Of a stretch of DNA of 63,510 nt, positions 1,926 through 63,510 are shown one piece after another. Every line of letters begins with the position of its first letter. Position 1 is the stretch's first letter. Source of the stretch: a bacterium (GTDB lineage: Bacteria > Patescibacteriota > Minisyncoccia > Phycocordibacterales > UBA2100); NCBI GenBank assembly GCA_030674455.1, contig JAUSGQ010000065.1, positions 1 through 63,510 of the forward strand, read 5' to 3'. The notes under the pieces were generated by a model. It was not told the origin of the DNA. It did not search any database and was given only the letters and a program-made list of their open reading frames with translations. Position numbers and translations under genes: made by a program.

Positions 1926-2245
1926 ACGCGTAGGTGACCCCAACGCGCATCTGTAATTTTTAGACTACGACAAAAGAGCTGTGTGAATAGTTCATTAACA
2001 CAGGCATAGTTTTATTAAATTTCAATGCGAATCCAGATGCGAGGCGAGGATGCAAATTCATAAATATTAATTGGTGTACATGAAGAGTATACCACGTAAA
2101 TCGCAAGCTCCAAGCCCTAAATCTCAAAAACCAAACAAAATCTCAATAATTAAACTCTTAAACTCCAAAACGCACACAGTTTATTTTTCTGGAATTTATA
2201 TACTGGAGCTTGTTTGGGGCTTGGAGCTTGAGTTTTGGAGCTTAT

Positions 2246-13367: not shown

Positions 13368-13398
13368 GTTATAATTCAATGGCGCATGGCCTCTCTGC

Positions 13399-13436
13399 TT
13401 TTACATTTTTGACTTTTGATTTTTACATTTTGACTT
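13399..13436 (+). promoter_or_regulatory. two direct repeats TTTTACATTTT(T)GACTT just upstream of pilB
   Basis: 13399-13415 and 13421-13436, period 22 nt, ending 6 nt before the ATG at 13443. Confidence 0.5.
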
Positions 13437-15191: not shown

Positions 15192-15226
15192 GTATTCTGT
15201 ATACGGTATTCCGTATTCTGTATGAT
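15192..15226 (+). repeat. five GTATNNN heptads (array contains the ATG of the next gene)
   Basis: GTATTCT GTATACG GTATTCC GTATTCT GTATGAT with an exact 7-nt period. Confidence 0.9.
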
Positions 15227-15581
15227 TCAAAGGTTTACTGACCTGCATGCATGGCAAGAAGCGCATAAATTGGTACTTTTGGTGTATAAAATCACGCGTT
15301 CATATCCGCGCGAAGAACAATTTGGATTGGTGAATCAGAGCAGACGCGCAGTAGTTTCAATAACATCAAACATCGCGGAAGGATTTGGGCGTAGCACAAG
15401 AAAAGACAAAGTTAATTTTTACATGATGGCGCGTACCTCGCTGACAGAATTGCGCAATCAAATAATCATTGCTCGCGACCTCATGTATATTGACACAAAG
15501 ACAGATGAACAATTTTGCGTTTCCGCTGAATCAGTAGCAAAACTTATATCTGGACTTGAGCGCTCTGCGTCAGATAAATAA
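15222..15581 (+). CDS. four-helix-bundle protein (23S rRNA intervening-sequence protein family)
   Basis: FTDLHAWQEAHKLVLLVYKIT...FGLVNQSRRAVVSITSNIAEGFGR...FYMMARTSLTELRNQ matches the family signature known from memory. Confidence 0.85.
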   Translation: MIQRFTDLHAWQEAHKLVLLVYKITRSYPREEQFGLVNQSRRAVVSITSNIAEGFGRSTRKDKVNFYMMARTSLTELRNQIIIARDLMYIDTKTDEQFCVSAESVAKLISGLERSASDK

Positions 15582-15593
15582 TGTTTTGTATTT

Positions 15594-15626
15594 ATACCGA
15601 ATACAATATACAGAATACGGTATACT
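15594..15626 (-). repeat. five inverted heptads (ATAC cores every 7 nt)
   Basis: ATAC cores at 15594, 15601, 15608, 15615 and 15622. This is the inverted partner of the 15192-15226 array. Confidence 0.9.
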
Positions 15627-15632
15627 TAAGGC

Positions 15633-16850: not shown

Positions 16851-16866
16851 GGCACAGGAGTATACC

Positions 16867-16985
16867 GTATATGGTATTCAGTATTCTGTATAAGAATCAC
16901 AGCAGAAGCGACTCGCGCGCATTTCATACGGAATACGGAATACGGAATACGGAATACTCTCCTCGGGCGCGCCGCGCCCGAGGAG
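16867..16985 (+). repeat. heptad array / spacer / inverted heptad array / GC hairpin module 1
   Basis: GTAT cores at 16867, 16874, 16881 and 16888. ATAC cores at 16926, 16933, 16940, 16947 and 16954. Perfect 13+13 hairpin at 16959-16985. Confidence 0.9.
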
Positions 16986-18733
16986 TGACTCTCATCGACA
17001 CGCTCGTTGCAAGCGCTCTCATGCTCGTCGTGTTTGTGGGAATAGCGGGAGTCTTTAAGTTGAGCGTCGACGTGATTACGAACAACAAGGCGCGCGCCGG
17101 AGCAATCGCACTGGCGAACGAGCGAATGGAGGACATTCGTTCTCTGTCGTATGCATTGGTGGGAACTGTCGGAGGAATTCCTTCGGGCTCCATAGCACAA
17201 TCGGACACAGTGGTTCAGAACGCAATTACATATACGCGCCGTACCACCGTTATGTATGGAGACGACCCCTACGACGGGCTTGGTGCTGCGGACACCAAAC
17301 CGGCGTCGGCTCCGACATCGCTCGATTACAAAATAGCGCGCGTGGACGTGGCGTGGGAATCGCGCACCGGCACTCGGCACCTGACATTTGTGACGAGAAT
17401 AGAGCCGACGAACGGCATTGAAACGCCATGTCCTGTGACCGCGCCCTGCGGAACGCTCGCAATTTCCGTTTATAACGCTTCAACAGAACCGATATCCAAT
17501 GCTAGCGTGCGCATAGTGAATTCCGGCACGAGTCCGATTGTCGACACTACTATCTACACAAACTCTCTGGGAGAAATGGCGCTCGGCGGCGTCCCGGCGG
17601 CGTCCGGATATGAAGTTACCGTTACAAAATCGGGGTACAGCACCGACCGCACATACAATCCGACATCGCAAAATACCAATCCGACGCCGGGTCCGTTTAC
17701 GGTTTCTTCCAATCAAACGACTTCAGGAACATTCCGAATCGACCTTCTCTCAAGCTTGACGGTCAACACGTATTCGTTGAGCACGAACAGTTGGACGGAT
17801 TTTTTTTCCGACGAGAGCAAAATAAATTGGCAGACCACGACGAACATTGCGGTCTCGGGGAATCAGGCGCGATTCGCGGGTAACCAGCCGTGGCTCCTGC
17901 CGGCAGATTTGTACTCGCAGACCATCACGCCGGTGGCGCTTACGCGGTGGGGAACATTCAGCTGGAATGATACCCGTCCATCGGAAACCACTATTACATA
18001 CCAGGTCTATTATACCGACGGCGCTGTTACAGCTCCGATCCCGGACAATATTCTCACCGGAAATATTGCGGGATTCTCGACGGAATCAACTACTTCTGTT
18101 GATTTGAGTGCAATTCCCGCGGACGAATACCCGAGCCTCATACTTGAAGCGTATCTTGTGGCGCAAAACCCGAACGCACCCTCTCCGTCGATACAAGATT
18201 GGAGTTTGACGTATGACAGCGGACAGGGAATTGCGATTCCATTTACTCTCCGCGGCGCAAAAACCATCGGAAGCGGACCAAGCGGCACTGTTTATAAATA
18301 TAGTCAGTTGCATACGACGAATTCTTCGGGAACGTTTTCTCTGCCCGCTATCGAATGGGATACATATACGATGTCGGTTGCCGCATCCACCGGCTACGAT
18401 ATTTCCACTTCTTGTCCGACGCAGCCGATAGCTCTAGAGCCGAATTCTTCAACAACGACACTGCTGTATCTTTCACCGCACACGACAAATTCCCTGCTGG
18501 TGGATGTGAAGAACGGCACGGGAGCGTATCTTTCCGGCGCAACGGTGGAAATCAAGAAGGGAAGCGCTACCCAGGATAAAACTGCGGATGCTTGCGGACA
18601 GGCATTTTTTGGAGGTCTCACGAACGGACAATATACGGTGACTGTCACAGAAGACGGATACGTGACATCAACAACACCGAGTGTAGATGTGACTAATTAC
18701 TCGACGGTTTCGGTAATTATGGAAAGTATTTAG
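16871..18733 (+). CDS. large pilin-like protein with prepilin-type N-terminus and CarboxypepD_reg-like beta domains
   Basis: G|VTLIDTLVASALMLVVFVGIAGVF class-III signal core. Repeats of the type ISVYNAS...VRIVNSG and LLVDVKNGTGAYLSGATVEIKKG. The start is at an ATG inside the heptad array. Confidence 0.75.
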   Translation: MVFSILYKNHSRSDSRAFHTEYGIRNTEYSPRARRARGVTLIDTLVASALMLVVFVGIAGVFKLSVDVITNNKARAGAIALANERMEDIRSLSYALVGTVGGIPSGSIAQSDTVVQNAITYTRRTTVMYGDDPYDGLGAADTKPASAPTSLDYKIARVDVAWESRTGTRHLTFVTRIEPTNGIETPCPVTAPCGTLAISVYNASTEPISNASVRIVNSGTSPIVDTTIYTNSLGEMALGGVPAASGYEVTVTKSGYSTDRTYNPTSQNTNPTPGPFTVSSNQTTSGTFRIDLLSSLTVNTYSLSTNSWTDFFSDESKINWQTTTNIAVSGNQARFAGNQPWLLPADLYSQTITPVALTRWGTFSWNDTRPSETTITYQVYYTDGAVTAPIPDNILTGNIAGFSTESTTSVDLSAIPADEYPSLILEAYLVAQNPNAPSPSIQDWSLTYDSGQGIAIPFTLRGAKTIGSGPSGTVYKYSQLHTTNSSGTFSLPAIEWDTYTMSVAASTGYDISTSCPTQPIALEPNSSTTTLLYLSPHTTNSLLVDVKNGTGAYLSGATVEIKKGSATQDKTADACGQAFFGGLTNGQYTVTVTEDGYVTSTTPSVDVTNYSTVSVIMESI

Positions 18734-18850
18734 TATATGGTATTCCGTATTCAGTATAAAAAAGGCCGCAAAAGCGAATCGCCCGCATTTCATACCGTAT
18801 ACCGTATACAGAATACAAAATACTGTGCGCGTGCGCTTCGCGCCTGCGGA
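18726..18850 (+). repeat. heptad/hairpin module 2
   Basis: Same architecture as module 1, with a weaker GC-rich segment at 18824-18850. Confidence 0.85.
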
Positions 18851-19420
18851 ATGACCCTGATAGAAACAGTAGTCGGAATTGCGGTTCTAATTATCGTGTT
18901 TCTTGCGCTCACATCCTCGCTCCTATATTTCTATCGCACGAACAGGTACGCAATCGAACAATCGAGCGCGGTCACTTCTGCACAGCGGGGAATTGATAAG
19001 GCAATTCGCACTATCCGCGAGGCGAGCTATTCGAGCGAGGGAGCGTTTCCTATTGTTTCAATCTCTGCCAATGACTTCGTGTTCTATGCCGACGTTGATT
19101 CGGACCCATTGATAGAGAAAATCCACTACTATATTTCAGGCACATCCCTAATGCAGGGGGCTGTAGACGCGACCGGCGACCCGCCTGCATACACCGGTGC
19201 CGAAGTAGCATCGATGATTTCGGATTACGTGCACAATATAGACCAGGGTATCCCCATGTTCCATTATTTTGATGCGAACGGTACTGCAATAACCGATTAC
19301 CAAAACCAATGGGCGAACGTGCGTTTTGTGAAAGCGAGCATCGTAGTAAATGTTGACCCCAACAAACTTCCGAATCAAATGACTCTTAGTTCATCCGCGG
19401 CGCTGAGGAACCTGAAATAA
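18737..19420 (+). CDS. pilin-like (pseudopilin) protein
   Basis: G|MTLIETVVGIAVLIIVFLALTS is a classic prepilin cleavage/methylation motif with Glu at +5. Confidence 0.75.
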   Translation: MVFRIQYKKGRKSESPAFHTVYRIQNTKYCARALRACGMTLIETVVGIAVLIIVFLALTSSLLYFYRTNRYAIEQSSAVTSAQRGIDKAIRTIREASYSSEGAFPIVSISANDFVFYADVDSDPLIEKIHYYISGTSLMQGAVDATGDPPAYTGAEVASMISDYVHNIDQGIPMFHYFDANGTAITDYQNQWANVRFVKASIVVNVDPNKLPNQMTLSSSAALRNLK

Positions 19421-19549
19421 TAGTATGCAGTATTCAGTATTCAGTATTCGGTATAAGAAGAGAGACAAGAAATGCGATGCATCCGTATTTCATACTGAAT
19501 ACTGTATACAGAATACGGAATACTCCCCGCGGGCGCTACGCGCCCGCGG
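19421..19549 (+). repeat. heptad/hairpin module 3
   Basis: A GTATTCA/GTATTCG array, an inverted ATAC array, and a 10+10 hairpin at 19527-19549 with a TAC loop. Confidence 0.85.
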
Positions 19550-24535: not shown

Positions 24536-24542
24536 ATATGAA

Positions 24543-24604
24543 GTATACCGTATACTGTATGCCGTATACATACTGAATACCAAATACTAAATACCAAATA
24601 TAAA
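24543..24604. repeat. GTATNNN x4 directly abutting ATACNNN x5 heptad arrays
   Basis: GTAT cores at 24543, 24550, 24557 and 24564. ATAC cores at 24570, 24577, 24584, 24591 and 24598. The array sits in the divergent HIT/recJ spacer. Confidence 0.9.
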
Positions 24605-24605
24605 T

Positions 24606-29078: not shown

Positions 29079-29106
29079 AGGTTATAGGGAATAGGTTATA
29101 GGTGTT
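29079..29106. repeat. AGGTTNN heptad array (near-identical copy at 47963-47990)
   Basis: AGGTTAT AGGGAAT AGGTTAT AGGTGTT, immediately upstream of sod. Confidence 0.85.
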
Positions 29107-29185
29107 AGTAAATTCTCGCATTTCAATTGTAACATCGCTTCATGAAGTTCCTATGACGTCGCCCGAATAGCCAAATATTAGGTGT

Positions 29186-31854: not shown

Positions 31855-32271
31855 ATGTCTACAATCAATCAACTAACGCGCAAGGGGCGCAAACAGAAGA
31901 CGTGGCGAACGAAGACCATCGCTCTTTCGCGCGGTTTTAATACCATCGAAAATCGCCCCAGCTACTTTAATGCACCATTCAAGCGCGGCGTTTGCACGCG
32001 CGTGACGACGAAGACGCCTCGTAAGCCGAACTCTGCAATCCGAAAGATTGCCCGTGTTCGCCTCACCAACGGCATGGAAATCACCGCATATATTCCGGGC
32101 GAAGGCCACGCTTTGCAGGAACACTCTGTCGTCCTAGTGCGCGGCGGGCGTGTGAAAGACATCGGTTTGCGCTACACGATTGTGCGCGGAAAGCTTGATG
32201 CGACAGGCGTTGATGCGCGCCGCCGAGGCCGTTCCCGATATGGAGCGAAACTGCCCAAAGTTAAGAAATAA
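31855..32271 (+). CDS. rpsL: 30S ribosomal protein S12
   Basis: PTINQL-type N-terminus, [19 protein letters not shown] and [13 protein letters not shown]. Confidence 0.97.
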
Positions 32272-32287
32272 AAACCAAATTCTAATT

Positions 32288-32360
32288 TGCAATTCGCAAA
32301 TGAAATACCAATTATCAAAATCACATATTTTTTGCAAATTGAAACTTGCAAACTGCAAAT
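32288..32360. repeat. TGCAA-core heptad words in the rpsL-rpsG spacer (inverted arrangement)
   Basis: (T/C)GCAA cores at 32288 and 32295, then at 32333, 32347 and 32354. Spacings within each group are multiples of 7. Confidence 0.75.
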
Positions 32361-32369
32361 TCTGAATCT

Positions 32370-37358: not shown

Positions 37359-37410
37359 CGAATTAGCAAATTCGTGGCTCGGCCCGAATTAGCAAATTCG
37401 TGGCTCGGCC
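37359..37410 (+). promoter_or_regulatory. perfect 2 x 26-nt tandem repeat, each unit containing the palindrome CGAATTagcaAATTCG
   Basis: CGAATTAGCAAATTCGTGGCTCGGCC at 37359-37384 and 37385-37410, 90 nt upstream of the A2M start. Confidence 0.8.
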
Positions 37411-37499: not shown

Positions 37500-40400
37500 A
37501 TGGACCCTGTGCCAAACCGCATTTCAACCGAGCCTGTTTTGCATCCAGACGTTGCCCCCATCGGCACGCCGCAACATCATTATCGGTGGAAGAAGGTCGT
37601 GATTTTCGGCATCGTTCTAATTCTATTTCTTGCCGGCATTCTCGCTAAGAGTATTTTGGGAGGGACATCGTTCTCTACTCCAAAAACAAATTACGTTCCT
37701 GTCTATACGCTCGTGAATGAAAAGATTTCCGAACACGGTGCAATAATAATTAATTTACCCAAGGGAGTCTCTCAAAAGGGAGCGGAAACAAAAGTATCTT
37801 TTGACCCCGGTATTGCAGGAGAGTGGATTGAATCAGATTTGCCGAACGCGGTAGTGTATAAACCCGCCGCCGCGCTCGCACTCGGCAAGCATTACAACGT
37901 TGCCCTCGCGACGGACGCGGGCGCAATCAAGAAAGATTTCTTGGTTGATGAAGACCCGCGCGTTGTGAGCGTTTTCCCCGATTCAAATGCGGAGGCGGAG
38001 CTCGCTTCGGCAATTACGGTTGTCTTTAACAGGCCGATGGTTCCACTTACGACACTCTCTGAATTGGATAAAAAAGATGTCCCGGTTTCCGTTTCTCCGG
38101 CGACACCCGGAAAATTCAAATGGATAAGCACGCGGACTCTGCAATTTATTCCCTCAGCGACGCTATATGGCTCCTCTCATTACACGGTAACCGTCAATCC
38201 AGGATTCATTTCAATGGACGGGATTTCGGTCGCGCCTAAAACGTTTTCATTTAGGACAAAACAACTTCGTCTTAACAGCTCGACATCCGGCACTATCGTC
38301 TATAACGAGCCCATCAATTTCTATTTCAACCAGCCGGTAGATATACAGAAAACTTCCGGAGAAATAAAGGTCATAAATAACGCAACAAATGCCCAGATAG
38401 AATTTGTCGCAAGCTACGGCACTTCTTATATTTGGGACGCGAATAATAATTCCGAAAGAGAAGTTCAGGACAAATCTATCGTCAGTATTCTCCCCAAGAA
38501 TTCCAAGAACGGCCATTCAAACGTGTGGGACTTTTCGACTCCCTATACCGCTACGATAAAAACTGCGTACCCGATTGGCGGGGACATAGCGCTTACCGGT
38601 AATGTTCCGCCTCTAACGGTCGGCGCGCCCCCCGGATCCATTGGTTTTGCACCGCTTGTGCCGGGTGGAAGGTATCCATACCCTGTGCCGCAATCGTTTA
38701 ATAATCCTGGTATGGTTCCGCCACAATTGCCGAGTGTCTTTCCGGGAAACTCTGGAGGTTCGGCCGCGATTGCAACGGTGACCACAAGTCCAGTATTGAA
38801 AAGCGTTACCGTCCTTTCCGAAAATACCACCCTGGCCTCGCCCCAGCTTTTTGACCCTACCGGGACCACGACCTTTTCTTTTTATGAAGACATAGACAAA
38901 GAGAAGAGTGGCATAAACGCCAAGGGATTAAAGAATATCGAGTACGGCGAGAAATGCGAGGAAGAAAACAGCGAGGGATATTATTCGAAATCCTGTAAGA
39001 AAGTTAAAGACAAATCACAGCTCATCTTTACTTTTGATGCCTCTGTATACGCGAGTGGAGAAAAAGTGCCGGTTACATTTGAACGCCTGATAAACGCAGG
39101 CGGATACCAGGTGAATACTGAGCCAATCGTTACGGAGCTCACGGTGTACCCGCAGTTGCGCATAACCTCGACTACGCCTGCAAACAATACCGATGGAGCG
39201 AGCGTAAAAGATTTAATCCTCTGCACCAACACTCCCCTGAAAGAATTGGACGGAAAGAAATTTCACGCTGCATTCAAAGCCAACAAGTACATGGTTTTTG
39301 GACGAAAGGATAACCCCTATTTACAAACAAATAATTATTGGGAAAAACCGCGGCCATGCGCTATCGGCGATTACGTAAACAGAATTCATTACGGCCTTCA
39401 TCCGGAGCAGGCGTATGCCATAAATGCCTCTATCGAAGATGTGTTCGGGCAGAAAGCGAATACGCAACTTTCTTTCACGACTGGAAAAGCGCCCAAATTC
39501 TATCTGCGATTCCAGAGTTTGCAGAAAATCTACAATGTCACAACGCCCGAACGCACGAAACTCACGTATGCTACGGAGAATTTCGATTACGTTGACCTTT
39601 CTATATGCAAAGTGAGCGCCGATTCAATGGTTCGCATTCTTGCGGCGCAACCGAGCGACACGAGCACTGCGTCAAATGGCTCCCTTCCGTGCCTCATTTC
39701 GCAATACAAGCAGATTCCGCTGAAACCCGACCAGTGGGTGAACCAATATTTCCAAATAGACCTAAAGGATTATTTTCCGGACCCGCGCGGGCAGTTCATT
39801 CTTTCCTACAGCCATCCGCAGTATGTGAACCGGGAAGGCCTGCCGCTCTACGCGAGAACGTATTTGAGCGTTACTAACTTGGCCGTTGTGGAAAAGCGCG
39901 TTAAATGGTCTTCCTATGACAATCTGCCTGATGTGCCAAGCACAGTCGACCCCGCAACGCGCGGTTCCGTTTACTGGGTGAGCCGGATGCATTCAATGGA
40001 GCCAGAAAATGCGGCATCGGTGAACGTATACAAATCGGGCGGAGCGGATAGATGGGGCAACAACAATACGACAGTGCCGCCCATACTTGCGCTATCGGGT
40101 GCCACGAATGCAAGTGGTTTCGGAGAGTTTCCACTCATTGCGGATGTCGTTGGTGCTGCTGTCATGAGCGGTCCGTCTACAGGTGCCGACGCTAACTCCG
40201 TCGGCCAGGAATCGGCGGTGGTATCCACGTGGGTGGACACAATAAGCAATAACAGTTGGCGGAATGCATATCAGAACGAGAAGATGTATGTGTATACCGA
40301 CAGACCTATTTATCGGCCCGGCCAGGAAGTCTTTATTAAAGGCTTGTACCGATTGGACTTTGACGGGGTTTTTGAAGTATTCCGCGATGCCGATGTAAAA

Positions 40401-43400
40401 CTGCAAGTCACCAACAGCAAGGGAGAAATAATACTGACGCAAAAGTTGCCAGTGAGCTCGTACGGCACGATTTCCACGAGTGTTAATCTTCCAGCGGACG
40501 CGCCGCTGGGTTCGTACAGTATTAACGCGGGAGGAAGCGGGTACGCATTCTTTGATGTTGCCGAATATGTGGGTGCTGCGTTTGAAGCAAAGGCAGAAAC
40601 AGATAAAGAAGAATACATAGCCGGAGATACGGTCAACTTCAAGATATCGGGCAAATATTATTTTGGAGTTCCGCTTGACGGCGGGTTGCTCGATTACAGC
40701 TTGACCTCGCAAAACTTTTACTTCGACCGCTACACGGACGAATACTTCAACTTCGGGGGAAATTGGTACTCGTGCTACGACTGCGGATACGGCGACACGT
40801 ATCTGAAGAGCGGCAAAGTCCAACTCGACGCAGAGGGGAGAGCGAGTATCGCGCAACAGCTTGATTTCGATGACCTCTTTACGGATGACGCGCGCGAGCA
40901 GAGCAAGATATTCGTTCTGCACGGAACGATAAAAGACAAGCAGGGCAAATCTGTCAGTTTCCAAAAATCATTCATAGTACACCGCGGAGATTTCTATATG
41001 GGAGTCAAAGCCGACCCCTCGTTTACGGGAACGAATCAGCCGGTCGTGATTCGCGCGAAAACCGTGGACGTGGAGGGAAAGCCTAAATCAAAATCCGGAA
41101 TTACCGTGGTGGTGAATAAGGTCACATGGGATTCAAACAAGCGTCAGGAAGTCGACGGGGGATATTACAATCGCGCGGAACAGGTTTTGACACCGGTTAT
41201 CACCAAGAGTTTCTCGACAAACGGTTCTGGTGATGATTCCGCAGAGATAAAGTTGAAAGACCCGGGGCAGTACGCGATAGTAGCCACCGCCAAAGATGGA
41301 AAAGACAACGAAATAAAAGGTACGAGCGAAATATATGTGTATGGGGAAGGAACGGTAGATGTGCGCCCGACCAACAACGCGACACTCGAATTAAAAGCAG
41401 AAAAGAAAGATTTGAAAGTCGGGGAACGCGCCAAACTCATCATCCAATCGCCGTATCCGCGCGCGAAAGCTCTTATCTCAATAGAGCGCGGCCGAATATT
41501 CACCTACGAAGTAGTGAATATCGAGAGAAACATGTACGAATACGAATTCCCAATCACCGAAGATTACGCACCGAACGTTTTCGCATCAGTCGTTTTATTA
41601 TCGTCCGGCCCGGAGGTCAAATACGGACAGATTGAATTCACCGTGGACCGCAAGGCGAAAGAACTGACGATAGATATTAAGCCCGGCAAGCTCTCGTATT
41701 TGCCTGGGGAGAAAGTAACGCTTAACGTGACGACGAAAGACGCGAAAGGGAATCCGGTGCCTGCGAATGTCTCTCTTGCGGTAGCGGATTTGAGCGTACT
41801 CGCGCTCAAGGGCAATCCGAAAAAGGACCCGCTTCTGTTCTTCTATGACGGTTTACCGCTTACAGTAACGACGGAAACGAATGTGAAGAACCTGCTTCAG
41901 GAGGCGGAAATTCCGACAGGCACAAAAGGCGGCGACGGAGGGAACCCTGCAGACCTCGCGACGCGCAAGCGCGGTGAATTTAGAGATACCGCGTTTTGGC
42001 AGGCGGATGTCGTTACAAACGCGCAAGGGATGGCGACAGTCACGTTTACCCTGCCGGACAATCTGACAAGGTGGCAAGTGGAATCGGTCGGCATTACGAA
42101 AGACACGAAGCTTGGCGTGCGCTACCAGGAAATCACTGCTCAAAAGGGGGTGATGACCATACCTCAGAAGCCGCGATTCATTGTGCCGGGCGATGAATTC
42201 ATGATAGGGGCAAAAATATTTAACCAGACTCTAAATTCTCAGACGCTTGAAATTTCTCTAGAAAGCAAGACGCTTGAATTACTTGATGCGCGAAAAACGA
42301 AAAAGACCATACAGGCAGGTGCTACAGAAGCGATATATTTCAAAGTGAAAGCGCCGGAGAATTTCACCGACGGCATACACGCGTTCATACTCTCCGCGAA
42401 AAATAACGATTACAACGATACGGTCGAACAGAATATTTCAATAACGCGGAACACCACGTATGAATCTACCGCGACAGCGAATTCCACAAGCGCCCTGAAT
42501 GAATCAGGGTATCTATTTCTGCCGGATGGCGTTCTCAAAGACAGGGGAGGGCTCACGATAAAAACGAGCGCCACACTCGCGGTGTATCTCTCCGACGCGC
42601 TACAGTATCTTTTCTCGTATCCGTACGGATGTTCTGAACAGCTCGCGAGCCGGCTTTCCTCGATGGCGATTACAAAGAAGGCGCTCGCGATTCCGAATGT
42701 TAGTACGCAGTTTAAATTCCCAACGGTAACGTTCAACGGAACAGAATACACGGTGGACCAGGCGGTGAACAAGGGACTGGCGCAGCTCTACGACAGCCAA
42801 ACAGTCGACGGCGGATTTTCGTATTACAAAGGCCTTCAGGCCGACCCGTATCTTTCCATGCACGTTCTCAATACTTTGATAGATATAGAGAAGGCGGGCT
42901 ACAACGTGCGGCAAGACGTAATTAGCAGAGCGGTCACGTATTTGTACGGGCAGGTACTGTACGTGAATAATCCGCAGAACACCATCGCGAATGATACCGA
43001 CACACTTATTTTTGCCGCCTACGCGTTATCGCGCGCCGATGGCGTTTCCGCGTCTTTCTCGGCACTAATGAATAAAATCGTCGGACGCGCAACTGTGCAA
43101 TACCTTTCAGATTCTGCGGGAAGCCAGGCGCTAGGGTACTTGGCGCTTGTGGCGGCTAGGGGCGGTACGAGCGAGTCTTTTAAAAATACCGTGTTCTCAA
43201 CTCTTATCAATAAAGTTGATATTGATTCCCGCGGGGCCTACGTAAAACAGAATGTGAAGAATATCAGCTGGCGATATTACGAAACCGCGGAAAAAGACAC
43301 CGCCCTTTTCCTCAAAGCACTCGTCGCGGATAAGCGCGAGTATTCGCAGACGGCCAATATTTTGCGCTGGCTCCTCGCGAGCAGAGCGAAAGACGGCTCA

Positions 43401-44288
43401 TGGGGTTCCACGAATACATCTGTCGCTGTCATTGACGCGATGTCGGATTACCTCTCGTGGAAGCGCGAGACGGAATCAGAATTTACTCTCGCGACCACCC
43501 TCGATGGGGGCGCGGTAAACTCCACAAAGTTCGATAAGAAAAATATTCTATCAACGATAGAAACTTTCCTGCCGATATCAAAAATCAGTGCAGGCATTAA
43601 TCACGTGCTTGCGTTTACAATAACTAACAATAATTCGCTTCCGAATACTTTCTACTACGACTTGAGCCTCAAATATTATTTGCCCGTACAGCAAATTGCA
43701 CCGAGAGACGAAGGCGTTGCCATCACGCGCGAGTTCTACAGTTTGACGGATAAGCTGAATGCCCGCCCGCTTCAAAGATCTAAAGTGGGGGACGTGGTTC
43801 GCGGAGTTCTCACCATCATATCTGCGAAACCGCGCAATATGTTCGCGATTGAAGATTATATTCCTGCGGGTTTTGAACTTGTGGATTTCAACCTAGCGAC
43901 GGAAGACCAAAGTTCAATTGACGCCGGATCAGGCGCGCCGCCGAGCGAGCGAAGGTCGCCATACGGCGCAGGACTGCAAACCAAGTCACTCGCATCCTCG
44001 TTCTGGAGCTGGAAAGGAATACGCGGATTGTTCAGCAAATCTCCGGTAGTTGAAGTCTCAGGCTCTCCGACCGTGTATCAAAAGTTCAACCCGGAATTCA
44101 AAGAAATGCACGATGACCGGCTATTCCTCTTCTCGCAAAACGTCCCCGCAGGAGCGTACACATACGAGTACTACATCCGCGCGACGACACCGGGTACTTT
44201 CAGCCATCTTCCGGCGATAGCGAGCGACCTGTACTTCCCCGAGAACTTCGGCCGAACCGCCGGGTCCGTGTTTACTGTCCTGCAGTAA
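37500..44288 (+). CDS. alpha-2-macroglobulin family protein (2262 aa), membrane anchored
   Basis: N-terminal TM helix, MG-type Ig repeats, FWQADVVTNAQGMATVTFTLPDNLTRWQV, thioester-type motif YPYGCSEQLAS (CSEQ at 42630-42641), DGSWGSTNTSVAVIDAM and FAIEDYIPAGFELVD. Confidence 0.9.
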   Translation: MDPVPNRISTEPVLHPDVAPIGTPQHHYRWKKVVIFGIVLILFLAGILAKSILGGTSFSTPKTNYVPVYTLVNEKISEHGAIIINLPKGVSQKGAETKVSFDPGIAGEWIESDLPNAVVYKPAAALALGKHYNVALATDAGAIKKDFLVDEDPRVVSVFPDSNAEAELASAITVVFNRPMVPLTTLSELDKKDVPVSVSPATPGKFKWISTRTLQFIPSATLYGSSHYTVTVNPGFISMDGISVAPKTFSFRTKQLRLNSSTSGTIVYNEPINFYFNQPVDIQKTSGEIKVINNATNAQIEFVASYGTSYIWDANNNSEREVQDKSIVSILPKNSKNGHSNVWDFSTPYTATIKTAYPIGGDIALTGNVPPLTVGAPPGSIGFAPLVPGGRYPYPVPQSFNNPGMVPPQLPSVFPGNSGGSAAIATVTTSPVLKSVTVLSENTTLASPQLFDPTGTTTFSFYEDIDKEKSGINAKGLKNIEYGEKCEEENSEGYYSKSCKKVKDKSQLIFTFDASVYASGEKVPVTFERLINAGGYQVNTEPIVTELTVYPQLRITSTTPANNTDGASVKDLILCTNTPLKELDGKKFHAAFKANKYMVFGRKDNPYLQTNNYWEKPRPCAIGDYVNRIHYGLHPEQAYAINASIEDVFGQKANTQLSFTTGKAPKFYLRFQSLQKIYNVTTPERTKLTYATENFDYVDLSICKVSADSMVRILAAQPSDTSTASNGSLPCLISQYKQIPLKPDQWVNQYFQIDLKDYFPDPRGQFILSYSHPQYVNREGLPLYARTYLSVTNLAVVEKRVKWSSYDNLPDVPSTVDPATRGSVYWVSRMHSMEPENAASVNVYKSGGADRWGNNNTTVPPILALSGATNASGFGEFPLIADVVGAAVMSGPSTGADANSVGQESAVVSTWVDTISNNSWRNAYQNEKMYVYTDRPIYRPGQEVFIKGLYRLDFDGVFEVFRDADVKLQVTNSKGEIILTQKLPVSSYGTISTSVNLPADAPLGSYSINAGGSGYAFFDVAEYVGAAFEAKAETDKEEYIAGDTVNFKISGKYYFGVPLDGGLLDYSLTSQNFYFDRYTDEYFNFGGNWYSCYDCGYGDTYLKSGKVQLDAEGRASIAQQLDFDDLFTDDAREQSKIFVLHGTIKDKQGKSVSFQKSFIVHRGDFYMGVKADPSFTGTNQPVVIRAKTVDVEGKPKSKSGITVVVNKVTWDSNKRQEVDGGYYNRAEQVLTPVITKSFSTNGSGDDSAEIKLKDPGQYAIVATAKDGKDNEIKGTSEIYVYGEGTVDVRPTNNATLELKAEKKDLKVGERAKLIIQSPYPRAKALISIERGRIFTYEVVNIERNMYEYEFPITEDYAPNVFASVVLLSSGPEVKYGQIEFTVDRKAKELTIDIKPGKLSYLPGEKVTLNVTTKDAKGNPVPANVSLAVADLSVLALKGNPKKDPLLFFYDGLPLTVTTETNVKNLLQEAEIPTGTKGGDGGNPADLATRKRGEFRDTAFWQADVVTNAQGMATVTFTLPDNLTRWQVESVGITKDTKLGVRYQEITAQKGVMTIPQKPRFIVPGDEFMIGAKIFNQTLNSQTLEISLESKTLELLDARKTKKTIQAGATEAIYFKVKAPENFTDGIHAFILSAKNNDYNDTVEQNISITRNTTYESTATANSTSALNESGYLFLPDGVLKDRGGLTIKTSATLAVYLSDALQYLFSYPYGCSEQLASRLSSMAITKKALAIPNVSTQFKFPTVTFNGTEYTVDQAVNKGLAQLYDSQTVDGGFSYYKGLQADPYLSMHVLNTLIDIEKAGYNVRQDVISRAVTYLYGQVLYVNNPQNTIANDTDTLIFAAYALSRADGVSASFSALMNKIVGRATVQYLSDSAGSQALGYLALVAARGGTSESFKNTVFSTLINKVDIDSRGAYVKQNVKNISWRYYETAEKDTALFLKALVADKREYSQTANILRWLLASRAKDGSWGSTNTSVAVIDAMSDYLSWKRETESEFTLATTLDGGAVNSTKFDKKNILSTIETFLPISKISAGINHVLAFTITNNNSLPNTFYYDLSLKYYLPVQQIAPRDEGVAITREFYSLTDKLNARPLQRSKVGDVVRGVLTIISAKPRNMFAIEDYIPAGFELVDFNLATEDQSSIDAGSGAPPSERRSPYGAGLQTKSLASSFWSWKGIRGLFSKSPVVEVSGSPTVYQKFNPEFKEMHDDRLFLFSQNVPAGAYTYEYYIRATTPGTFSHLPAIASDLYFPENFGRTAGSVFTVLQ

Positions 44289-47962: not shown

Positions 47963-47990
47963 AGGTTATAGGGAATAGATTATAGGTGAT
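47963..47990. repeat. AGGTTNN heptad array, near-copy of 29079-29106
   Basis: AGGTTAT AGGGAAT AGATTAT AGGTGAT (25/28 identical). Confidence 0.85.
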
Positions 47991-47997
47991 AGAAAGA

Positions 47998-48025
47998 GAA
48001 AAACCCGCCTTAAGGCGGGTTTTTC
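47998..48025. terminator. 28-nt perfect palindrome with A/T runs
   Basis: GAAAAACCCGCCTT/AAGGCGGGTTTTTC. Confidence 0.75.
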
Positions 48026-52951: not shown

Positions 52952-53086
52952 CTATTCAAACAAATCGACGTGCGAGCCGGTGCGAGCGAGAAGAACTTCT
53001 GTATCCGTAACATCATAAATCAACAGCCAATTCGGACCGATGTGGCATTCCCAGAATCCCAGCCACTCTCCGGTTAAAGACTTCCG
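52952..53086 (-). pseudogene. 5'-truncated YafQ/RelE-type toxin remnant
   Basis: The C-terminal part LTGEWLGFWECHIGPNWLLIYDVTDTEVLLARTGSHVDLFE matches the YafQ pattern. The N-terminal half is absent at the IS boundary. Confidence 0.6.
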
Positions 53087-53089
53087 GCC

Positions 53090-53665
53090 AGAACTCCCTG
53101 CGCTTGTGCGCAGGGATGAATGGCCGCAGATGCAATACAATAGGTATGCATGTCTCGCACACCGGATATCAAATCAAAAGAAGGACTATGGCTTTGGTAT
53201 CACAATGTCTCGGAGTGCTACTATCATATACAAATTACGGTAAAGTATCGGAAGTCGTTGTTTGACGAACCGGTACAGAAGCTCATGCTCCAAATCGTGA
53301 GCGGGTTCAAGGAGCGTTACGCCATCGATATTCACGAAATCGGATTCGACCAGAACCATGTCCACCTGCTGTGCCGTTTCCTCCCCAAATACAGCGGAGG
53401 CCAAGTCATCAAGCTCATCAAATCAATTACAGCAAGCCAGCTATTCAAATTCATACCCAAACTCAGGAAAGAGCTGTGGGGAGGGGAATTCTGGACGGAC
53501 GGCTACTACATCGCCACAATCTCCGGCAAGGGAGACAAGCGCGTGATTGAAAGGTACATCCGAAACCAGGGACGCGAGAAAGATATTCCCCAGCTTCGAC
53601 TCTTCACGCTCGACTAACCATTGGCATCCAGACGTCAACGCCCTGCGCTTGTGCGCAGGGTGGGT
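53090..53665 (+). mobile_element. IS200/IS605-family-like (Y1 transposase) element bounded by identical hairpins
   Basis: CCCTGCGCTTGTGCGCAGGG occurs at 53096-53115 and again at 53641-53660, flanking the tnpA gene. Confidence 0.7.
53150..53617 (+). CDS. tnpA: IS200-like Y1 (HUH) transposase / REP-associated tyrosine transposase-like
   Basis: YHIQITVKYRKSLF, QNHVHLLCRF (HUH) and WTDGYYIATISG (catalytic Tyr region). Confidence 0.85.
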   Translation: MSRTPDIKSKEGLWLWYHNVSECYYHIQITVKYRKSLFDEPVQKLMLQIVSGFKERYAIDIHEIGFDQNHVHLLCRFLPKYSGGQVIKLIKSITASQLFKFIPKLRKELWGGEFWTDGYYIATISGKGDKRVIERYIRNQGREKDIPQLRLFTLD

Positions 53666-54120: not shown

Positions 54121-54182
54121 ATTCAGCAACCCGTTTCTTTCTTTAAACCGAAATACGCAAGGACCACCCTTATATTCCCTGA

Positions 54183-54212
54183 AACCTAAGACCTAGAACC
54201 TACAACCTTCCT
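54183..54212. repeat. AACCT-core heptad array
   Basis: AACCT, GACCT, AACCT and AACCT at 54183, 54190, 54197 and 54204. Confidence 0.85.
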
Positions 54213-55170
54213 AAATGCTCACGCTAGCCGAATTATTTCCCTCGTTCGATTCCTTTACTTCGTTTACCGGATCAAGTGATACAGAAAAGAGTCCGCCGGG
54301 GACTGCATTCTTGAAACGCAGCATGTTCTCGATGCTTGCTCCGGGAGCGAGAGATGTTTGCGCGGGCGAAGTGTATGGATACATCGGAGATGTCGGCAGT
54401 TGTGCCGTAAAGTACCACGGGCCGGTGGATGAGCCGCTCGCATTTGTGATCAAAAAACGCACCGCGACTAGGTCATTCGGCGATACGGGTTCGCGAGGAA
54501 TTATGTTGCCGCTTATCGGGTCGATAACGCCCGTGGACAAAATTCGCACAGAAAGGTCGGCAACTCCTGTAGTCGAGGGAGCTGTAATTGTTTGCGGTTG
54601 AGTCTCAACTGCAGGAGCCGATTCTGTTACGGGGCTCGTCTCTACCGGAGCAGTGCCCGCTCCTACAACCGTTACAGTGGCATTGCCTTGCGGCTGCGCC
54701 ACGGTTTTGCCCGGGGTGACGGGCGCGCTCGATATGAAAATAACAGAAAGCGGAACCTTGACGGTGGATGTTCCGGTGAGGTACGGAGTGACTGCGAACT
54801 TGTTATCGGTCGAGAGCATTGTGTAGCCGACTCCGCATGGAATGACAATTTGCTTGTTGTCGGGCGAGGTCGTTTTGAATTGAAAACCCTCGCGGCACTG
54901 GTAGAGGAATGCGTATGTCCCCGTACCTGCAGGGTTGTATTTCCAGGAAACGGTGAACTGTTCGCCGGAGGGAATGTTCTTGGTGGGCACCGTTAATTTT
55001 ATAGATTTTGAAGAAGAAAGGATTGACGAAAAGGATGAGAACCATGAGCCGGAAAATAATGCCAGATTACTGGCTCCCCAAACGATTATTCCAATGAGTA
55101 TTACGAGACCCGCTACCGCGAGTATATTTGAAAACATTCCTGACTTCTCCGGCACGGGTGTTTCAGCCAT
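54211..55170 (-). CDS. membrane-anchored protein with C-terminal CARDB-like domain
   Basis: N-terminal TM helix. C-terminus ADLSVRIL...VAVRFLITNASGSSTGPWYF...SLDPVNEVKESNEGNN. Confidence 0.65.
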   Translation of the reverse strand: MAETPVPEKSGMFSNILAVAGLVILIGIIVWGASNLALFSGSWFSSFSSILSSSKSIKLTVPTKNIPSGEQFTVSWKYNPAGTGTYAFLYQCREGFQFKTTSPDNKQIVIPCGVGYTMLSTDNKFAVTPYLTGTSTVKVPLSVIFISSAPVTPGKTVAQPQGNATVTVVGAGTAPVETSPVTESAPAVETQPQTITAPSTTGVADLSVRILSTGVIDPISGNIIPREPVSPNDLVAVRFLITNASGSSTGPWYFTAQLPTSPMYPYTSPAQTSLAPGASIENMLRFKNAVPGGLFSVSLDPVNEVKESNEGNNSASVSI

Positions 55171-55393: not shown

Positions 55394-55753
55394 ATGGAAC
55401 AAGACCAGCAGTTTTTGGAGTATGTCGTTAAGGCATTGGCCGACCATCCGGAGGATGTAAAAATTACTCGTACCGTTGATGAAATGGGTGTATTGCTTGT
55501 GCTTTCCGTCCACAAGGACGACATGGGAAAGATTATCGGACGCTCGGGACAGACGGCGAAAGCGATTCGCACAGTTCTACGAGTAGTCGGTATGAAGAAC
55601 GACGCGCGCGTAAACCTGAAAATCGAAGAGCCGGAAGGAAGCGAGCGGACGCCTCGCAGAAGCGAAAATGCAGGCGCGAGCGCTGCACCCGCAGAGCCAT
55701 ACGTGCGCGACACTACAGTTGAGGATGTGATACGAGACCTGAAGGCAGAATGA
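55394..55753 (+). CDS. khpA: KH-domain RNA-binding protein (KhpA/YlqC-like) with C-terminal tail
   Basis: FLEYVVKALADHPEDVKI...GKIIGRSGQTAKAIRTVL. Confidence 0.8.
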   Translation: MEQDQQFLEYVVKALADHPEDVKITRTVDEMGVLLVLSVHKDDMGKIIGRSGQTAKAIRTVLRVVGMKNDARVNLKIEEPEGSERTPRRSENAGASAAPAEPYVRDTTVEDVIRDLKAE

Positions 55754-55840
55754 GCGTATAGCGAATAGCGTTTAGCGTATAGAGGCAAACAACTGCGAAT
55801 TTTGTATTTCCTAAACGCTCTACGCTAGTCGCTAATCGCT
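55753..55840. repeat. AGCGNNN x5 / spacer / inverted CGCT x4 heptad arrays
   Basis: AGCG at 55753, 55760, 55767 and 55774 (AGAG at 55781). CGCT at 55816, 55823, 55830 and 55837. Confidence 0.9.
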
Positions 55841-55846
55841 ACCTTT

Positions 55847-56500
55847 ATGCTCCATTTCCACATCATCACCCTGTTTCCCGAATCAATCGAGCCGTATCTC
55901 AAGAGCTCGATTATTGGGCGCGCGATAGAAAAAAAACTCATAAAAGTTTCTTATTACAACCCAATAGAATTCACTCGCACTAAATACGGCCGCATAGACC
56001 AGCGACCCTACGGCGGCGGCCCCGGAATGGTACTTGAGCCGGAGGCAGTCTTAAGAGCGGCGCAGAAAGCCATGTCAAGGCGAGGCCTTGACAAAAAAAG
56101 CATCGAGAAGATTTTCTTCTCGACTGACGGAGCGTTGTTTGATGAGGCGATGGCGAAAAAGCTTTCAAAAAAGAAAAATATTCTGCTTATTTGCGGACGG
56201 TACGAAGGCGTGGACGCGCGCGTGCCAAAAATCCTGCGCGCGAAACCGATTACAGTCGGACCATATGTATTAACAGGCGGGGAATTACCGGCGGCAACTG
56301 TGATTGACGCAGTCGCAAGATTCGTTCCGGGAGTTCTTGGCAAAGCGGAATCATTGGAGCGTTCCAGAGTTTCCAGCCCCGAGGTCTACACCCGCCCCGA
56401 AATCCTAGTTTGGAAAGGTAAGAAATACCGAGTCCCGAAAGTATTATTGTCCGGTAACCATGCCGACATAAACGCCTGGAAAACGCGGCGAAAGAAGTGA
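55847..56500 (+). CDS. trmD: tRNA (guanine37-N1)-methyltransferase
   Basis: HIITLFPE, DQRPYGGGPGMVL, CGRYEGVDARV and LTGGELPA. Confidence 0.95.
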   Translation: MLHFHIITLFPESIEPYLKSSIIGRAIEKKLIKVSYYNPIEFTRTKYGRIDQRPYGGGPGMVLEPEAVLRAAQKAMSRRGLDKKSIEKIFFSTDGALFDEAMAKKLSKKKNILLICGRYEGVDARVPKILRAKPITVGPYVLTGGELPAATVIDAVARFVPGVLGKAESLERSRVSSPEVYTRPEILVWKGKKYRVPKVLLSGNHADINAWKTRRKK

Positions 56501-56513
56501 GAATTGACTCTAT

Positions 56514-56541
56514 AACCTAAAACCTACTGCCTAGAACCTGC
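56514..56541. repeat. AACCT heptad array
   Basis: Cores at 56514, 56521, (56528) and 56535. Confidence 0.85.
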
Positions 56542-56641: not shown

Positions 56642-56684
56642 TTCCTAAAACCTAGAACCTGGCATCTATAACCTATTCCTGCCT
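56642..56684. repeat. AACCT heptad array
   Basis: Cores at 56642, 56649, 56656, (56663) and 56670. The array ends at the ATG at 56685. Confidence 0.85.
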
Positions 56685-58968: not shown

Positions 58969-58998
58969 ACCCAGTAGGTGATTCTACTGAATCAGGTG
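58969..58998 (+). promoter_or_regulatory. 30-nt motif shared with 55266-55295
   Basis: ACCCAGTAGGTgATTCTaCTGAATcAGGTG, 123 nt upstream of rplJ. The CAGTAG/CTACTG stem is preserved via a G-U pair in the other copy. Confidence 0.5.
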
Positions 58999-59056
58999 TC
59001 AGGTGCTAGGTGTCAGGAAATTCCTGGAACCTAAAACCTGGAACCTGGAACCTGTT
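58994..59056. repeat. AGGTGNN x3 facing NNAACCT x4 heptad arrays
   Basis: AGGTG at 58994, 59001 and 59008. AACCT at 59028, 59035, 59042 and 59049. Confidence 0.9.
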
Positions 59057-59120
59057 CCTGTCAGGCTTGCCAAGGTCGTTCTTAGTTGCCTTGCATTATC
59101 AGAATAGTTTTTGTATTGCA

Positions 59121-59639: not shown

Positions 59640-59770
59640 TGCAAAACCCAATTTGCAATTTGGCAAACAAAATCCCAAAACCTCAATACCCAAAAGACGA
59701 AGTTTGAGAATTGTAATTTGTAATTTCTTTGCAAATTGATTTTTGGAGCTTGCAAATTAGCAATTAACAA
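59640..59770. repeat. NGCAA/CCCAA heptads followed by inverted TTG heptads in the rplJ-rplL spacer
   Basis: Cores at 59640, 59647, 59654, 59661, about 59668, about 59675, 59682 and 59689. TTG cores at 59711 and 59718, and at 59729, 59736, 59743, 59750, 59757 and 59764. Confidence 0.8.
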
Positions 59771-59782
59771 TAATTGAAATAT

Positions 59783-63375: not shown

Positions 63376-63510
63376 GGTTCTCAGAATTCCTTACGGGAGT
63401 TCTGAGTAAGGGCGTGCGGTGGATGCCTTGACTCTAAAGGGCGATGAAGGACGCGGCTTAGCTGCGATACGCTTCGGGGAGGTGCTATGCAACCTGCGAT
63501 CCGAAGATTT
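63376..63510 (+). rRNA. rrl: 23S rRNA, 5' end (partial, continues beyond the window)
   Basis: GGTGGATGCCTTGACTCTAAAGGGCGATGAAGGACGCGGCTTAGCTGCGATA matches the conserved 23S 5' domain (E. coli GGTGGATGCCCTGGCAGTCAGAGGCGATGAAGGACGTGCTAATCTGCGATA). The exact 5' end is uncertain (63376-63396). Confidence 0.85.

Follow-up and report, generated by a model that had tools for sequence, protein, structure and literature searches.

Complementary heptanucleotide arrays between khpA and trmD of a Patescibacteria contig: a possible gene-less member of a family of S23p-bearing stem-loop cassettes

Background

In this work, we are asking what kind of element fills the spacer between khpA and trmD on contig JAUSGQ010000065.1 (GenBank assembly GCA_030674455.1), which belongs to a bacterium of the Patescibacteriota. 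At this junction the window, i.e. the whole analysed stretch of 63,510 nucleotides (nt), carries two tandem arrays of 7-nt units, complementary to each other and together occupying the spacer from stop to start codon. An earlier sequence-only reading had noticed them, along with arrays built on other words elsewhere in the window, and found no known class of elements to which they could belong. [quoted passage not shown] We favour the view, to which we give an even chance, that the khpA-trmD arrays are a member without an open reading frame (ORF) of a family of heptad-armed stem-loop cassettes, the full members of which carry S23p.

Intervening sequences of 23S rRNA genes which bear S23p are found in Coxiella, Leptospira, Brucella and Xanthomonas. 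To our knowledge, no function has been known for PF05635 proteins since rRNA intervening sequences were described, and we likewise know of no explanation of the cyanobacterial heptamer repeats since 1990. Elhai and colleagues in 2008, and Vioque in 1997, reportedly described small dispersed repeats inside heptamer repeats.

Results

The khpA-trmD junction consists of the following parts:
55394-55753, plus strand: KhpA ORF (PF13083)
55751..55753, plus strand: khpA stop codon TGA, the last base of which doubles as the first base of the first AGCG heptad
55753..55787, plus strand: 5' arm, AGCGTAT AGCGAAT AGCGTTT AGCGTAT AGAGGCA, with TAG in all three frames
55788..55811, plus strand: loop of 24 nt, with GCGA in the middle and GTATTTC at the 3' end
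55812..55843, plus strand: 3' arm, TAAACGCT CTACGCT AGTCGCT AATCGCT ACC, complementary to the 5' arm via its CGCT cores
55847..55849, plus strand: trmD start codon ATG, 3 nt past the 3' arm
55847-56500: TrmD ORF (PF01746)

Direct reading placed AGCG at 55753, 55760, 55767 and 55774, AGAG at 55781, and CGCT at 55816, 55823, 55830 and 55837, in full agreement with the sequence-only reading. In reading order, the stop codon runs into the first unit (TGA/GCGTAT), the loop follows AGAGGCA, and the 3' arm ends in ACCTTT/ATG. Tandem Repeats Finder reported 55753-55782 (period 7, 4.3 copies) and 55823-55841, as well as about 17 more period-7 arrays in the window. The spacer folds into a 24-bp interrupted hairpin with stems of 4+6+6+5+3 bp and with 1x1 and 2x2 internal loops between them, at a minimum free energy of -37.7 kcal/mol (z -4.0), and none of 200 shuffles folded as well. 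The long hairpin that had been proposed for this site is in fact a row of 4-5 bp helices, and some other pairs are weak (24538-24610, z -1.1).

The proposed check for an excess of period 7 over shuffled controls was positive for the window. A lag-7 self-match scan of the window found 23 period-7 segments against 0.25 in dinucleotide shuffles (about 90-fold), while periods 8-14 were almost nil (one segment, of period 8), period 6 gave 8 against 1.65 and period 4 gave 27 against 16. TrmD relatives place the host of the window in Candidatus Kaiserbacteria of the Candidate Phyla Radiation (CPR, Patescibacteria). Loci of this group (L001-L031 and L081-L123) served as relatives, and loci of other phyla (L032-L080 and L124-L160) as controls. 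Counting each exact 4-mer that recurs at least three times at 7-nt spacing, we obtained a density of 15.9 period-7 arrays per 100 kb for the Kaiserbacteria loci (808 kb in total), compared with 1.6-2.9 for periods 5, 8, 10 and 11, and with 4.4 in the control loci. The number of units per array in Kaiserbacteria is sharply capped at five (three units in 51 arrays, four in 48, five in 26, six in 2 and seven in 1). Differences between units cluster in three contiguous columns beyond uniform decay (0.77 versus 0.68, p=1e-12), which corroborates the earlier description of each heptad as a constant core with variable nucleotides. The period, earlier described as strictly 7 nt, is not universal; in relatives there are also arrays of period 9, and some S23p genes have flanks of period 8.

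Five independent assemblies of one close relative contain identical arrays, which are therefore not an assembly artefact, and no difference was seen in the arrays of three population variants of a close relative (L161-L163). The window holds at least four unrelated words. Rfam at gathering threshold, applied to the whole window, gave no match on any array and a sole match to the 5' end of 23S rRNA.

The same two-armed arrangement is present around the S23p gene of the window:
15192..15226, plus strand: 5' arm of the cassette, GTATnnn x5, with the S23p ATG within the last unit
15222..15581, plus strand: S23p gene (PF05635 23S_rRNA_IVP, TIGR02436 four-helix-bundle protein) of 119 amino acids, which fills the loop and lies between pilB and pilC
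15594..15628, plus strand: 3' arm of the cassette, ATACnnn x5, with the pilC ATG at 15633

The flanks of about 24 S23p genes obtained by protein search, from CPR phyla, cyanobacteria, Bacteroidota and Azospirillum, were read. Almost all of these genes have flanking heptad arrays, and about 18 of the flanking pairs are inverted. By a strict criterion, a period-7 array was present in the flank of 15 of 18 S23p genes, compared with 1.3% of random 80-nt windows. The arms were the following:
GTAT/ATAC: Woesebacteria, Moranbacteria, L171, L191 (again between pilB and pilC)
GATTC/GAATC: a Flavobacterium metagenome-assembled genome, Levybacteria, Blackburnbacteria
TCAGGAG/CTCCTGA: Nostoc punctiforme, Trichormus
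GGGAGTA/TCCCTAC: Nostoc edaphicum
AAGGGAA/TTCCCTT: Geminocystis
AAGGTT/AACCTT: Riemerella
heptad arms around an S23p ORF: Azospirillum, with the ORF inside a 23S rRNA gene according to Rfam

Heptad-armed S23p genes were also seen in Doudnabacteria, at the pilB-pilC site of one close and one more distant relative, and on plasmids, where Picosynechococcus joins Nostoc, Trichormus, Geminocystis and Riemerella; the flanks of one S23p gene (L180) have period 8. The nearest S23p protein relative has the same word in 13 of 20 cases, against a permutation mean of 1.7 (p<=5e-5), and the ORF and its arms therefore travel or co-evolve together. The mean S23p similarity is 0.54 among GTAT-armed genes and 0.53 between GTAT-armed and GATTC-armed ones. 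The family is large, with more than 2,200 PF05635 clusters at E<=1e-10 in one word-indexed search. Its solved homologue 2GSC has five chains and was described as a toroidal homopentamer (PMC4990558); a kinship of S23p to Avd, an accessory protein of diversity-generating retroelements, was also reported (PMC10053308). S23p ORFs are known in rRNA insertions of CPR bacteria, as are ORF-less intervening sequences in rRNA (PMC11270868). In case of the Coxiella 23S intervening sequence, GACAGAT heptamers stand directly before the S23p ATG and RNase III cuts at the first repeat (PMC4990558). This note on Coxiella excepted, a literature search of limited coverage returned no description of a general S23p-heptad cassette, or of such hairpins in CPR.

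Two S23p cassettes with repeat arrays, on plasmids of Picosynechococcus (L176) and Pseudanabaena (L182), lie inside CRISPR-Cas operons, at sites between cas10 and cmr3, and between cas6 and cas4. In the S23p cassette of the window, TTTTGTATTT immediately precedes the 3' arm, and this 3' motif was the only one in common when short loops were compared with both ends of the S23p gene. Beside the 3' arm, G(C/T)ATTTC is common to the loops of elements with different arm words (e.g. window 55804-55810, 16919-16925, 18785-18791, 19485-19491 and 29120-29126, as well as L003, L004, L005, L008, L031 and L084).

Orthologous khpA-trmD spacers of relatives follow one plan, in which the first unit overlaps the stop codon and 3-5 units, a loop of 15-40 nt and 3-5 complementary units ending at the ATG come one after another. 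At least 9 different words are used:
AGCG: window, L101
GTAGC: L003, L004, L008
CTAG: L005, L026, L106
CCACTAG: L002, L084, L091
CAGCT: L007, L031, L108
ACAG: L083, L110
CGTAG: L085
GAATCA: L087
GGGAC: L009
AAATCC: L023
units of period 9: L001, L082, L103

The exact TrmD protein of the window had no database record, and tblastn together with genome and metagenome scans gave no relative closer than 83%. In the closest relative of the window the spacer holds inverted arrays of 9-nt period with ATGTTGTAG or CGTTGTAGA units (L001, about 9900-10000; also L082 and L103). The word does not track the TrmD tree, as is evident from L083 and L084, the TrmD proteins of which are 95% identical while the words differ. 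Their flanks are about 85-88% nucleotide-identical, a similarity that breaks off exactly at the TAG and is restored from the ATG onwards. Both loops hold AAATCCAA despite the different arms. In L091 an S23p gene (42% identical) lies inside the loop of the khpA-trmD heptad hairpin. In the close relative to which the variants L161-L163 belong, with an S23p that is 97% identical, the elements recur at the sites where the window has them, and whole arms have changed in concert (ATACGGA x4 versus ATACGAT x4). The arms evolve in concert, and their turnover is much faster than that of the flanking genes.

Some relatives have overlapping stop and start codons at khpA-trmD and no spacer. More distant Kaiserbacteria have there a long hairpin without heptads, about 150 nt upstream of trmD (L010, L011, L013, L020, L022, L030, L088, L090, L093, L095, L104, L107, L109 and L114), in which the flanks (GCGCTCGGCG...CGCCTCGC) and the centre (TTTTCTGCTGAAAA or CCGTCGCTATCTGCC...) are conserved; it is a second, unnamed structured spacer of this junction.

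Upstream of khpA, at least 8 relatives carry (ACTACNN)x5 as nearly the entire 5' untranslated region (5'UTR) behind a TGnTATACT promoter; the word is conserved and has no complementary partner, which points to direct recognition of the single-stranded array. These arrays are located as follows:
L016, 9601-9632
L031, 7133-7171
L089, 128-159
L104, 417-447
L106, 1187-1218
L108, 1540-1571
L110, 1851-1868
L114, about 1850

Interrupted hairpins were obtained for each of the 32 elements tested; the number of Watson-Crick pairs in them is 15-46, and 20-35 in most. When the register of the arms was scanned, 25.3 pairs were obtained in register, about 21 at a shift of 7 nt in either direction, 16-17 at 14 nt and 8-10 elsewhere; the cores supply the pairing, and slippage of the hairpins in steps of one unit or more is possible. 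Their stability depends on the word, with z of -4.0 for AGCG, -4.4 for AGGT and, among AU-rich words, from -1.1 to -2.1. G outnumbers C in the 5' arm of 25 of 29 elements (p=1e-4), a polarity which matches that of the S23p cassettes. Furthermore, 25 of 31 elements run from the stop codon of the upstream gene (-13 to +7 of the first core) to the start codon of the downstream gene on the same strand (0 to +13 after the last core). The earlier statement that most copies sit between co-directional genes is in line with this count; three pairs depart from it, being situated inside the 5' ends of pilin-like ORFs.

Discussion

The favoured reading builds on the architecture of the arrays, their association with S23p genes, their placement and their turnover, all of which are directly observed, while pairing at the RNA level, processing and translational coupling are inferred. 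A full cassette consists of about five heptads, an S23p gene exactly filling the loop and about five complementary heptads; the same cassette is the classical intervening sequence when located in 23S rRNA genes, and also occurs between operon cistrons in CPR, cyanobacteria and Bacteroidota. The ORF-less form retains the arms, the 5'-to-3' polarity and a loop of 20-40 nt. The stop-to-start placement suggests that the arms pair in the transcript, where the 4-5 nt cores would make the contact and the insert would be pushed out as an interrupted hairpin. At its base, the upstream stop would come to lie beside the downstream start, and insertion may be tolerated at stop-start junctions because of this retained adjacency. 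RNase III may also cleave the stem and so part the cistrons from each other. Such processing of the khpA-trmD element is plausible by analogy with rRNA intervening sequences, to which the demonstrated RNase III excision or cleavage is confined (PMC4990558).

Several observations weigh against this reading. Folds of the sense and antisense strands are equally stable (sense better in 14 of 32 elements, G-U pairs 67 versus 76), and therefore no feature identifies the structure as one of RNA and not of DNA. Hardly any pairing is contributed by the variable positions, which leaves stems that are short helices with regular internal loops; such interruptions weaken the case for RNase III, and the weak stems of AU-rich words (z -1.1 to -2.1) are poor canonical substrates of this enzyme. 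Single arrays with no partner arm, including the conserved one in the khpA 5'UTR, are left unexplained by the hairpin model. Finally, a few cyanobacterial S23p genes (L175, L181 and L182) have direct or non-matching flanking arrays.

Compared with 23S intervening sequences, the likeness lies in a stem of terminal complementary sequences which encloses a loop that may hold an S23p gene: arms able to enclose an insert are present in the khpA-trmD element, Azospirillum has heptad arms, and the window cassette 15192-15628 has the same parts. The khpA-trmD element differs in having no PF05635 ORF in its 24-nt loop and in its stem, a row of 4-5 bp helices as opposed to a near-perfect stem of 28 bp. 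It lies between protein-coding genes, not in helix 25 or 45 of 23S rRNA, and the other window elements are likewise found in mRNA spacers and ORF 5' ends.

The STRR sequences of cyanobacteria also consist of tandem 7-nt units in non-coding DNA at many loci and form intercistronic hairpins, among them 7-bp hairpins between hupS and hupL, for which stabilisation of the transcript or translational coupling was proposed (PMC2670836). The cyanobacterial S23p genes that we examined are flanked by such arrays. In contrast to the window, STRR sequences belong to heterocystous cyanobacteria and form often longer, more perfect arrays of a few genome-wide consensus units, while in the CPR host the arrays stop at five degenerate units and use a locus-specific word, at least four of them in the window. 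A literature search of limited coverage gave no link between STRR and S23p.

Direct TAACTGA heptamers of marine Beggiatoaceae, some cyanobacteria and Bacteroidetes stand as 2-6 units a few nucleotides before start codons, in genomes that have few Shine-Dalgarno sites (PMC4679880). They resemble the single arrays at 56644 and 13396 and those of the khpA 5'UTR in relatives, and differ in being one genome-wide word in almost only direct orientation, whereas the window has many words, mostly as inverted pairs. In Kaiserbacteria loci and the window, Shine-Dalgarno-like 4-mers were found from -20 to -4 of 13% of called starts versus 21% of random 17-mers, and these values, based on crude start calls, suggest little use of Shine-Dalgarno sites.

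Hairpins with internal loops are also known from the early mRNA of phage T7, where RNase III cuts these intercistronic structures and releases separate mRNAs. They have no heptad periodicity, and of the two kinds of hairpin it is for T7 only that cleavage was demonstrated.

Among the roles suggested in the sequence-only reading, RNA processing or translation control and sites for a modular binding protein are the two leading ones. The latter is the main rival of our reading, though we regard it as unlikely. According to it, the arrays would be recognised by a ring-shaped multimer that binds nucleic acids, for which the S23p homopentamer is the most plausible candidate, with one heptad per subunit in the manner of TRAP or HutP; the complementarity of the arms would be secondary, and ORF-less and single arrays would be bound in trans. 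Ring proteins such as TRAP and HutP recognise a short constant core with non-conserved spacers, HutP sites being UAG every 7 nt in two blocks. The heptads of the window share this design, with free spacer bases which stay unpaired, and in Kaiserbacteria the arms stop at five units; the homologue 2GSC, described as a toroidal homopentamer, has five chains (PMC4990558). Heptad arrays enclose nearly every S23p gene, the word goes with the S23p lineage in different genera and at different insertion sites (p<=5e-5), single arrays of a conserved word exist, and none of the five GTAT elements of the window is more than 10 kb away from its GTAT-type S23p gene. The kinship of S23p to Avd (PMC10053308) is counted on the same side. 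Against S23p binding stand at least four unrelated words in a 63-kb window with one S23p gene, the swap of words at one orthologous site between near-identical genomes, cyanobacterial arrays of 8-14 units, and the similarity values quoted above, by which GTAT-armed S23p proteins are no closer mutually than to GATTC-armed ones; in addition, the Coxiella protein is apparently not made (PMC4990558). The arms of heptad elements are moreover complementary to each other, unlike TRAP and HutP sites, and a binding protein is here only a candidate. Each of these two proteins has one fixed core.

It is rather improbable that the arrays are neutral by-products of mutation, in which slippage of heptanucleotides and template switching would build palindromes in unconstrained sequence, with no function and no real tie to S23p. 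Heptanucleotide repeats are the commonest long simple repeats in prokaryotes and the most abundant class of 5-11 nt in most genomes, with slippage as the proposed origin, in the part of PMC4679880 which cites Mrazek 2007. Concerted change of whole arms between close relatives, fast turnover of words, relatives with no spacer, equal folding of both strands and the weak period-7 excess in unrelated phyla would agree with such an origin. The sharp five-unit cap, however, is no geometric slippage distribution, and cores are kept while spacer bases vary beyond uniform decay. The consistent polarity relative to gene direction, the exact fit from stop to start, the identity of arrays in five population variants, the strong, lineage-specific association with S23p and the conservation of an unpaired word upstream of khpA speak against it as well.

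Much less credible are ordinary intrinsic terminators, attenuators or phase-variable repeats that would switch trmD on and off. A stable hairpin does stand directly upstream of a gene, and in Haemophilus hmw1A heptamer repeats of the 5'UTR control expression together with RNase III (PMC12721329). The terminator reading was rejected since the stem in the khpA-trmD spacer is followed by CCTTTATG and no U-tract, a terminator scan of this hairpin gave no terminator-like match, and the element lies inside a conserved operon junction. Phase variation was dismissed likewise, as the arrays and their unit number are constant among L161-L163 and the units are degenerate and five at most. On both points, as on CRISPRs, which have repeats of 24-48 nt with unique spacers and not contiguous 7-nt units, we concur with the sequence-only reading.

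Barely conceivable is the reading of the arrays as miniatures like repetitive extragenic palindromic (REP) sequences or REPINs (REP doublets forming hairpins), moved by a Y1 transposase (REP-associated tyrosine transposase, RAYT, or IS200-type) acting on single-stranded DNA hairpins. In its favour one may quote the size of the elements (about 100 nt), their hairpins, their position outside genes or at the edges of genes, the sharp borders of element replacement and a Y1 transposase gene in the window (53150-53617). We rejected it after inspection of this IS200-type element, as direct copies of a hairpin of its own, CCCTGCGCTTGTGCGCAGGG, enclose the transposase, which show no heptads and do not recur elsewhere in the window, high-copy near-identical families are lacking, words differ by locus and the gene associated with arrays is S23p, not a transposase. 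This transposase is the only Y1 gene of the window and its hairpins are unrelated to the arrays, in accordance with the earlier exclusion of REPs. REP and REPIN elements share with heptad elements the extragenic location, the hairpin of about 100 nt with two inverted halves and the supposed mobility; they differ in high copy number, near-identity, a GTAG or CGTC head and the tie to a Y1 transposase, all of which heptad elements do not have (PMC3116915, PMC3733652).

Two further ideas were tried and abandoned. A role in providing stop codons in all frames is true for the khpA-trmD element and many of its orthologues; it is not general, because the GTAT family fails in this respect. Stacked target-site duplications were rejected as the origin of flanking arrays because most pairs are inverted, not direct.

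Beyond the favoured reading of this locus, we consider a broader proposal as possible, though doubtful: S23p genes and heptad arrays would form one cross-phylum cassette system, in which a pentameric S23p ring recognises its own lineage-specific array of about five heptads, and rRNA helices, stop-start junctions and regions of cleavable leader peptides are the places into which the cassette spreads, together with its ORF-less miniatures. If true, such a system would give a single explanation for 23S intervening sequences, cyanobacterial STRR sequences and CPR hairpins, and would assign a first function to a very large orphan family related to Avd.

If the arrays are an integral and lineage-specific part of the S23p cassette, the puzzles of S23p and of the cyanobacterial heptamers merge into one, namely whether S23p binds or acts on the arrays and how the unit moves. 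Annotators would gain a simple signature for inserts in operons, rRNA genes and ORF 5' ends; gene callers now extend the pilin ORFs of the window through the hairpins. The CPR, where few Shine-Dalgarno sites seem to be in use, would gain candidate elements of intercistronic control or processing in core operons (rpsL-rpsG, rplJ-rplL, khpA-trmD, rpoB-rpoC and the pilus operon). Even as selfish inserts that are no more than tolerated, the arrays would still mark where bacterial transcripts can accept about 100-450 nt of extra structured RNA.

Other features of the window

Each of the other sites listed in the sequence-only reading was inspected and confirmed. As described there, the word is specific to the locus, the period is shared and the arms are inverted, with the exception of the arrays at 29079, 47963, 54178, 56514 and 56644, which are single; the word given as TGCAA belongs to the self-complementary TTGCAA. 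The inverted pairs and word arrays are:
16860..16960, plus strand: GTAT/ATAC element, 5+5 units with a 31-nt loop, within which a pilin-like ORF has its ATG (16871) and its leader-coding part
16960-16986: perfect GC-rich palindrome after the preceding element
18726..18826, plus strand: GTAT/ATAC element in the leader region of a second pilin-like ORF
19422..19526, plus strand: GTAT/ATAC element in the leader region of a third pilin-like ORF
24543..24604, plus strand: loopless GTAT/ATAC pair, ending at the recJ ATG (24606)
58992..59057, plus strand: tight AGGTG/ACCT pair upstream of rplJ, -35 kcal/mol, z -4.4
32270..32367, plus strand: TTGCAA-word arrays which fill the rpsL-rpsG spacer
59640..59771, plus strand: TTGCAA/CAAA-word arrays which fill the rplJ-rplL spacer
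2143..2243, minus strand: AAACTCC/GGAGCTT inverted pair just downstream of the clpP stop, one of few with a C-rich 5' arm

The weak fold of the pair at recJ (z -1.1, 24538-24610) is due to the fact that only its cores pair.

The single arrays are:
56644..56684, plus strand: CCTAnnn array with no partner arm, ending at the ATG at 56685
56514..56539, plus strand: AACCTnn array right after the trmD stop
54178..54208, no strand assigned: ACCTnnn array adjoining the stop of the minus-strand ORF 54211-55170
29079..29108, minus strand: CTAnnnC array, ending 9 nt before the probable sodA start
47963..47992, no strand assigned: AGGTTAT-type array which copies the one at 29079 and stands downstream of tuf
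13396..13436, plus strand: TTTTGAC-type array, ending 6 nt before the pilB ATG

The arrays at 29079-29108 and 47963-47992 are alike in 27 of 30 bases despite being 19 kb apart, and a terminator-like hairpin (47995-48020) adjoins the latter.

At 16871-17000, 18737-18860 and 19425-19560, the three pilin-like ORFs begin within the 5' heptad arm, and in each of them the hairpin together with a perfect GC-rich palindrome encodes a leader of 38-42 amino acids which ends in RARG|VT(L/V). With respect to L161 and L162, these elements differ by indels of 3, 39 and 30 nt, all multiples of three, which fits translation of the hairpins within a cleavable prepilin leader.

The Y1 transposase ORF of IS200/IS605 type (PF01797; 53150-53617) lies within an element at 53085-53665, the two direct CCCTGCGCTTGTGCGCAGGG hairpins being at 53096-53115 and 53641-53660. 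Outside the window, a CAATT/AATTG heptad hairpin takes up the spacer that separates two ORFs, about 1,100 and 1,250 amino acids long (L022, 15332-15412; L093, 14019-14099), which are likely rpoB and rpoC, judged by size and order only. The window contains no tRNA and no tmRNA; at its edge lies the 5' end of a 23S rRNA gene (63396-63510), of which only the first 113 nt are inside. A perfect 26-nt tandem duplication (CGAATTAGCAAATTCGTGGCTCGGCC x2) occupies 37359-37410, just upstream of an ORF of 2262 amino acids at 37500-44288.

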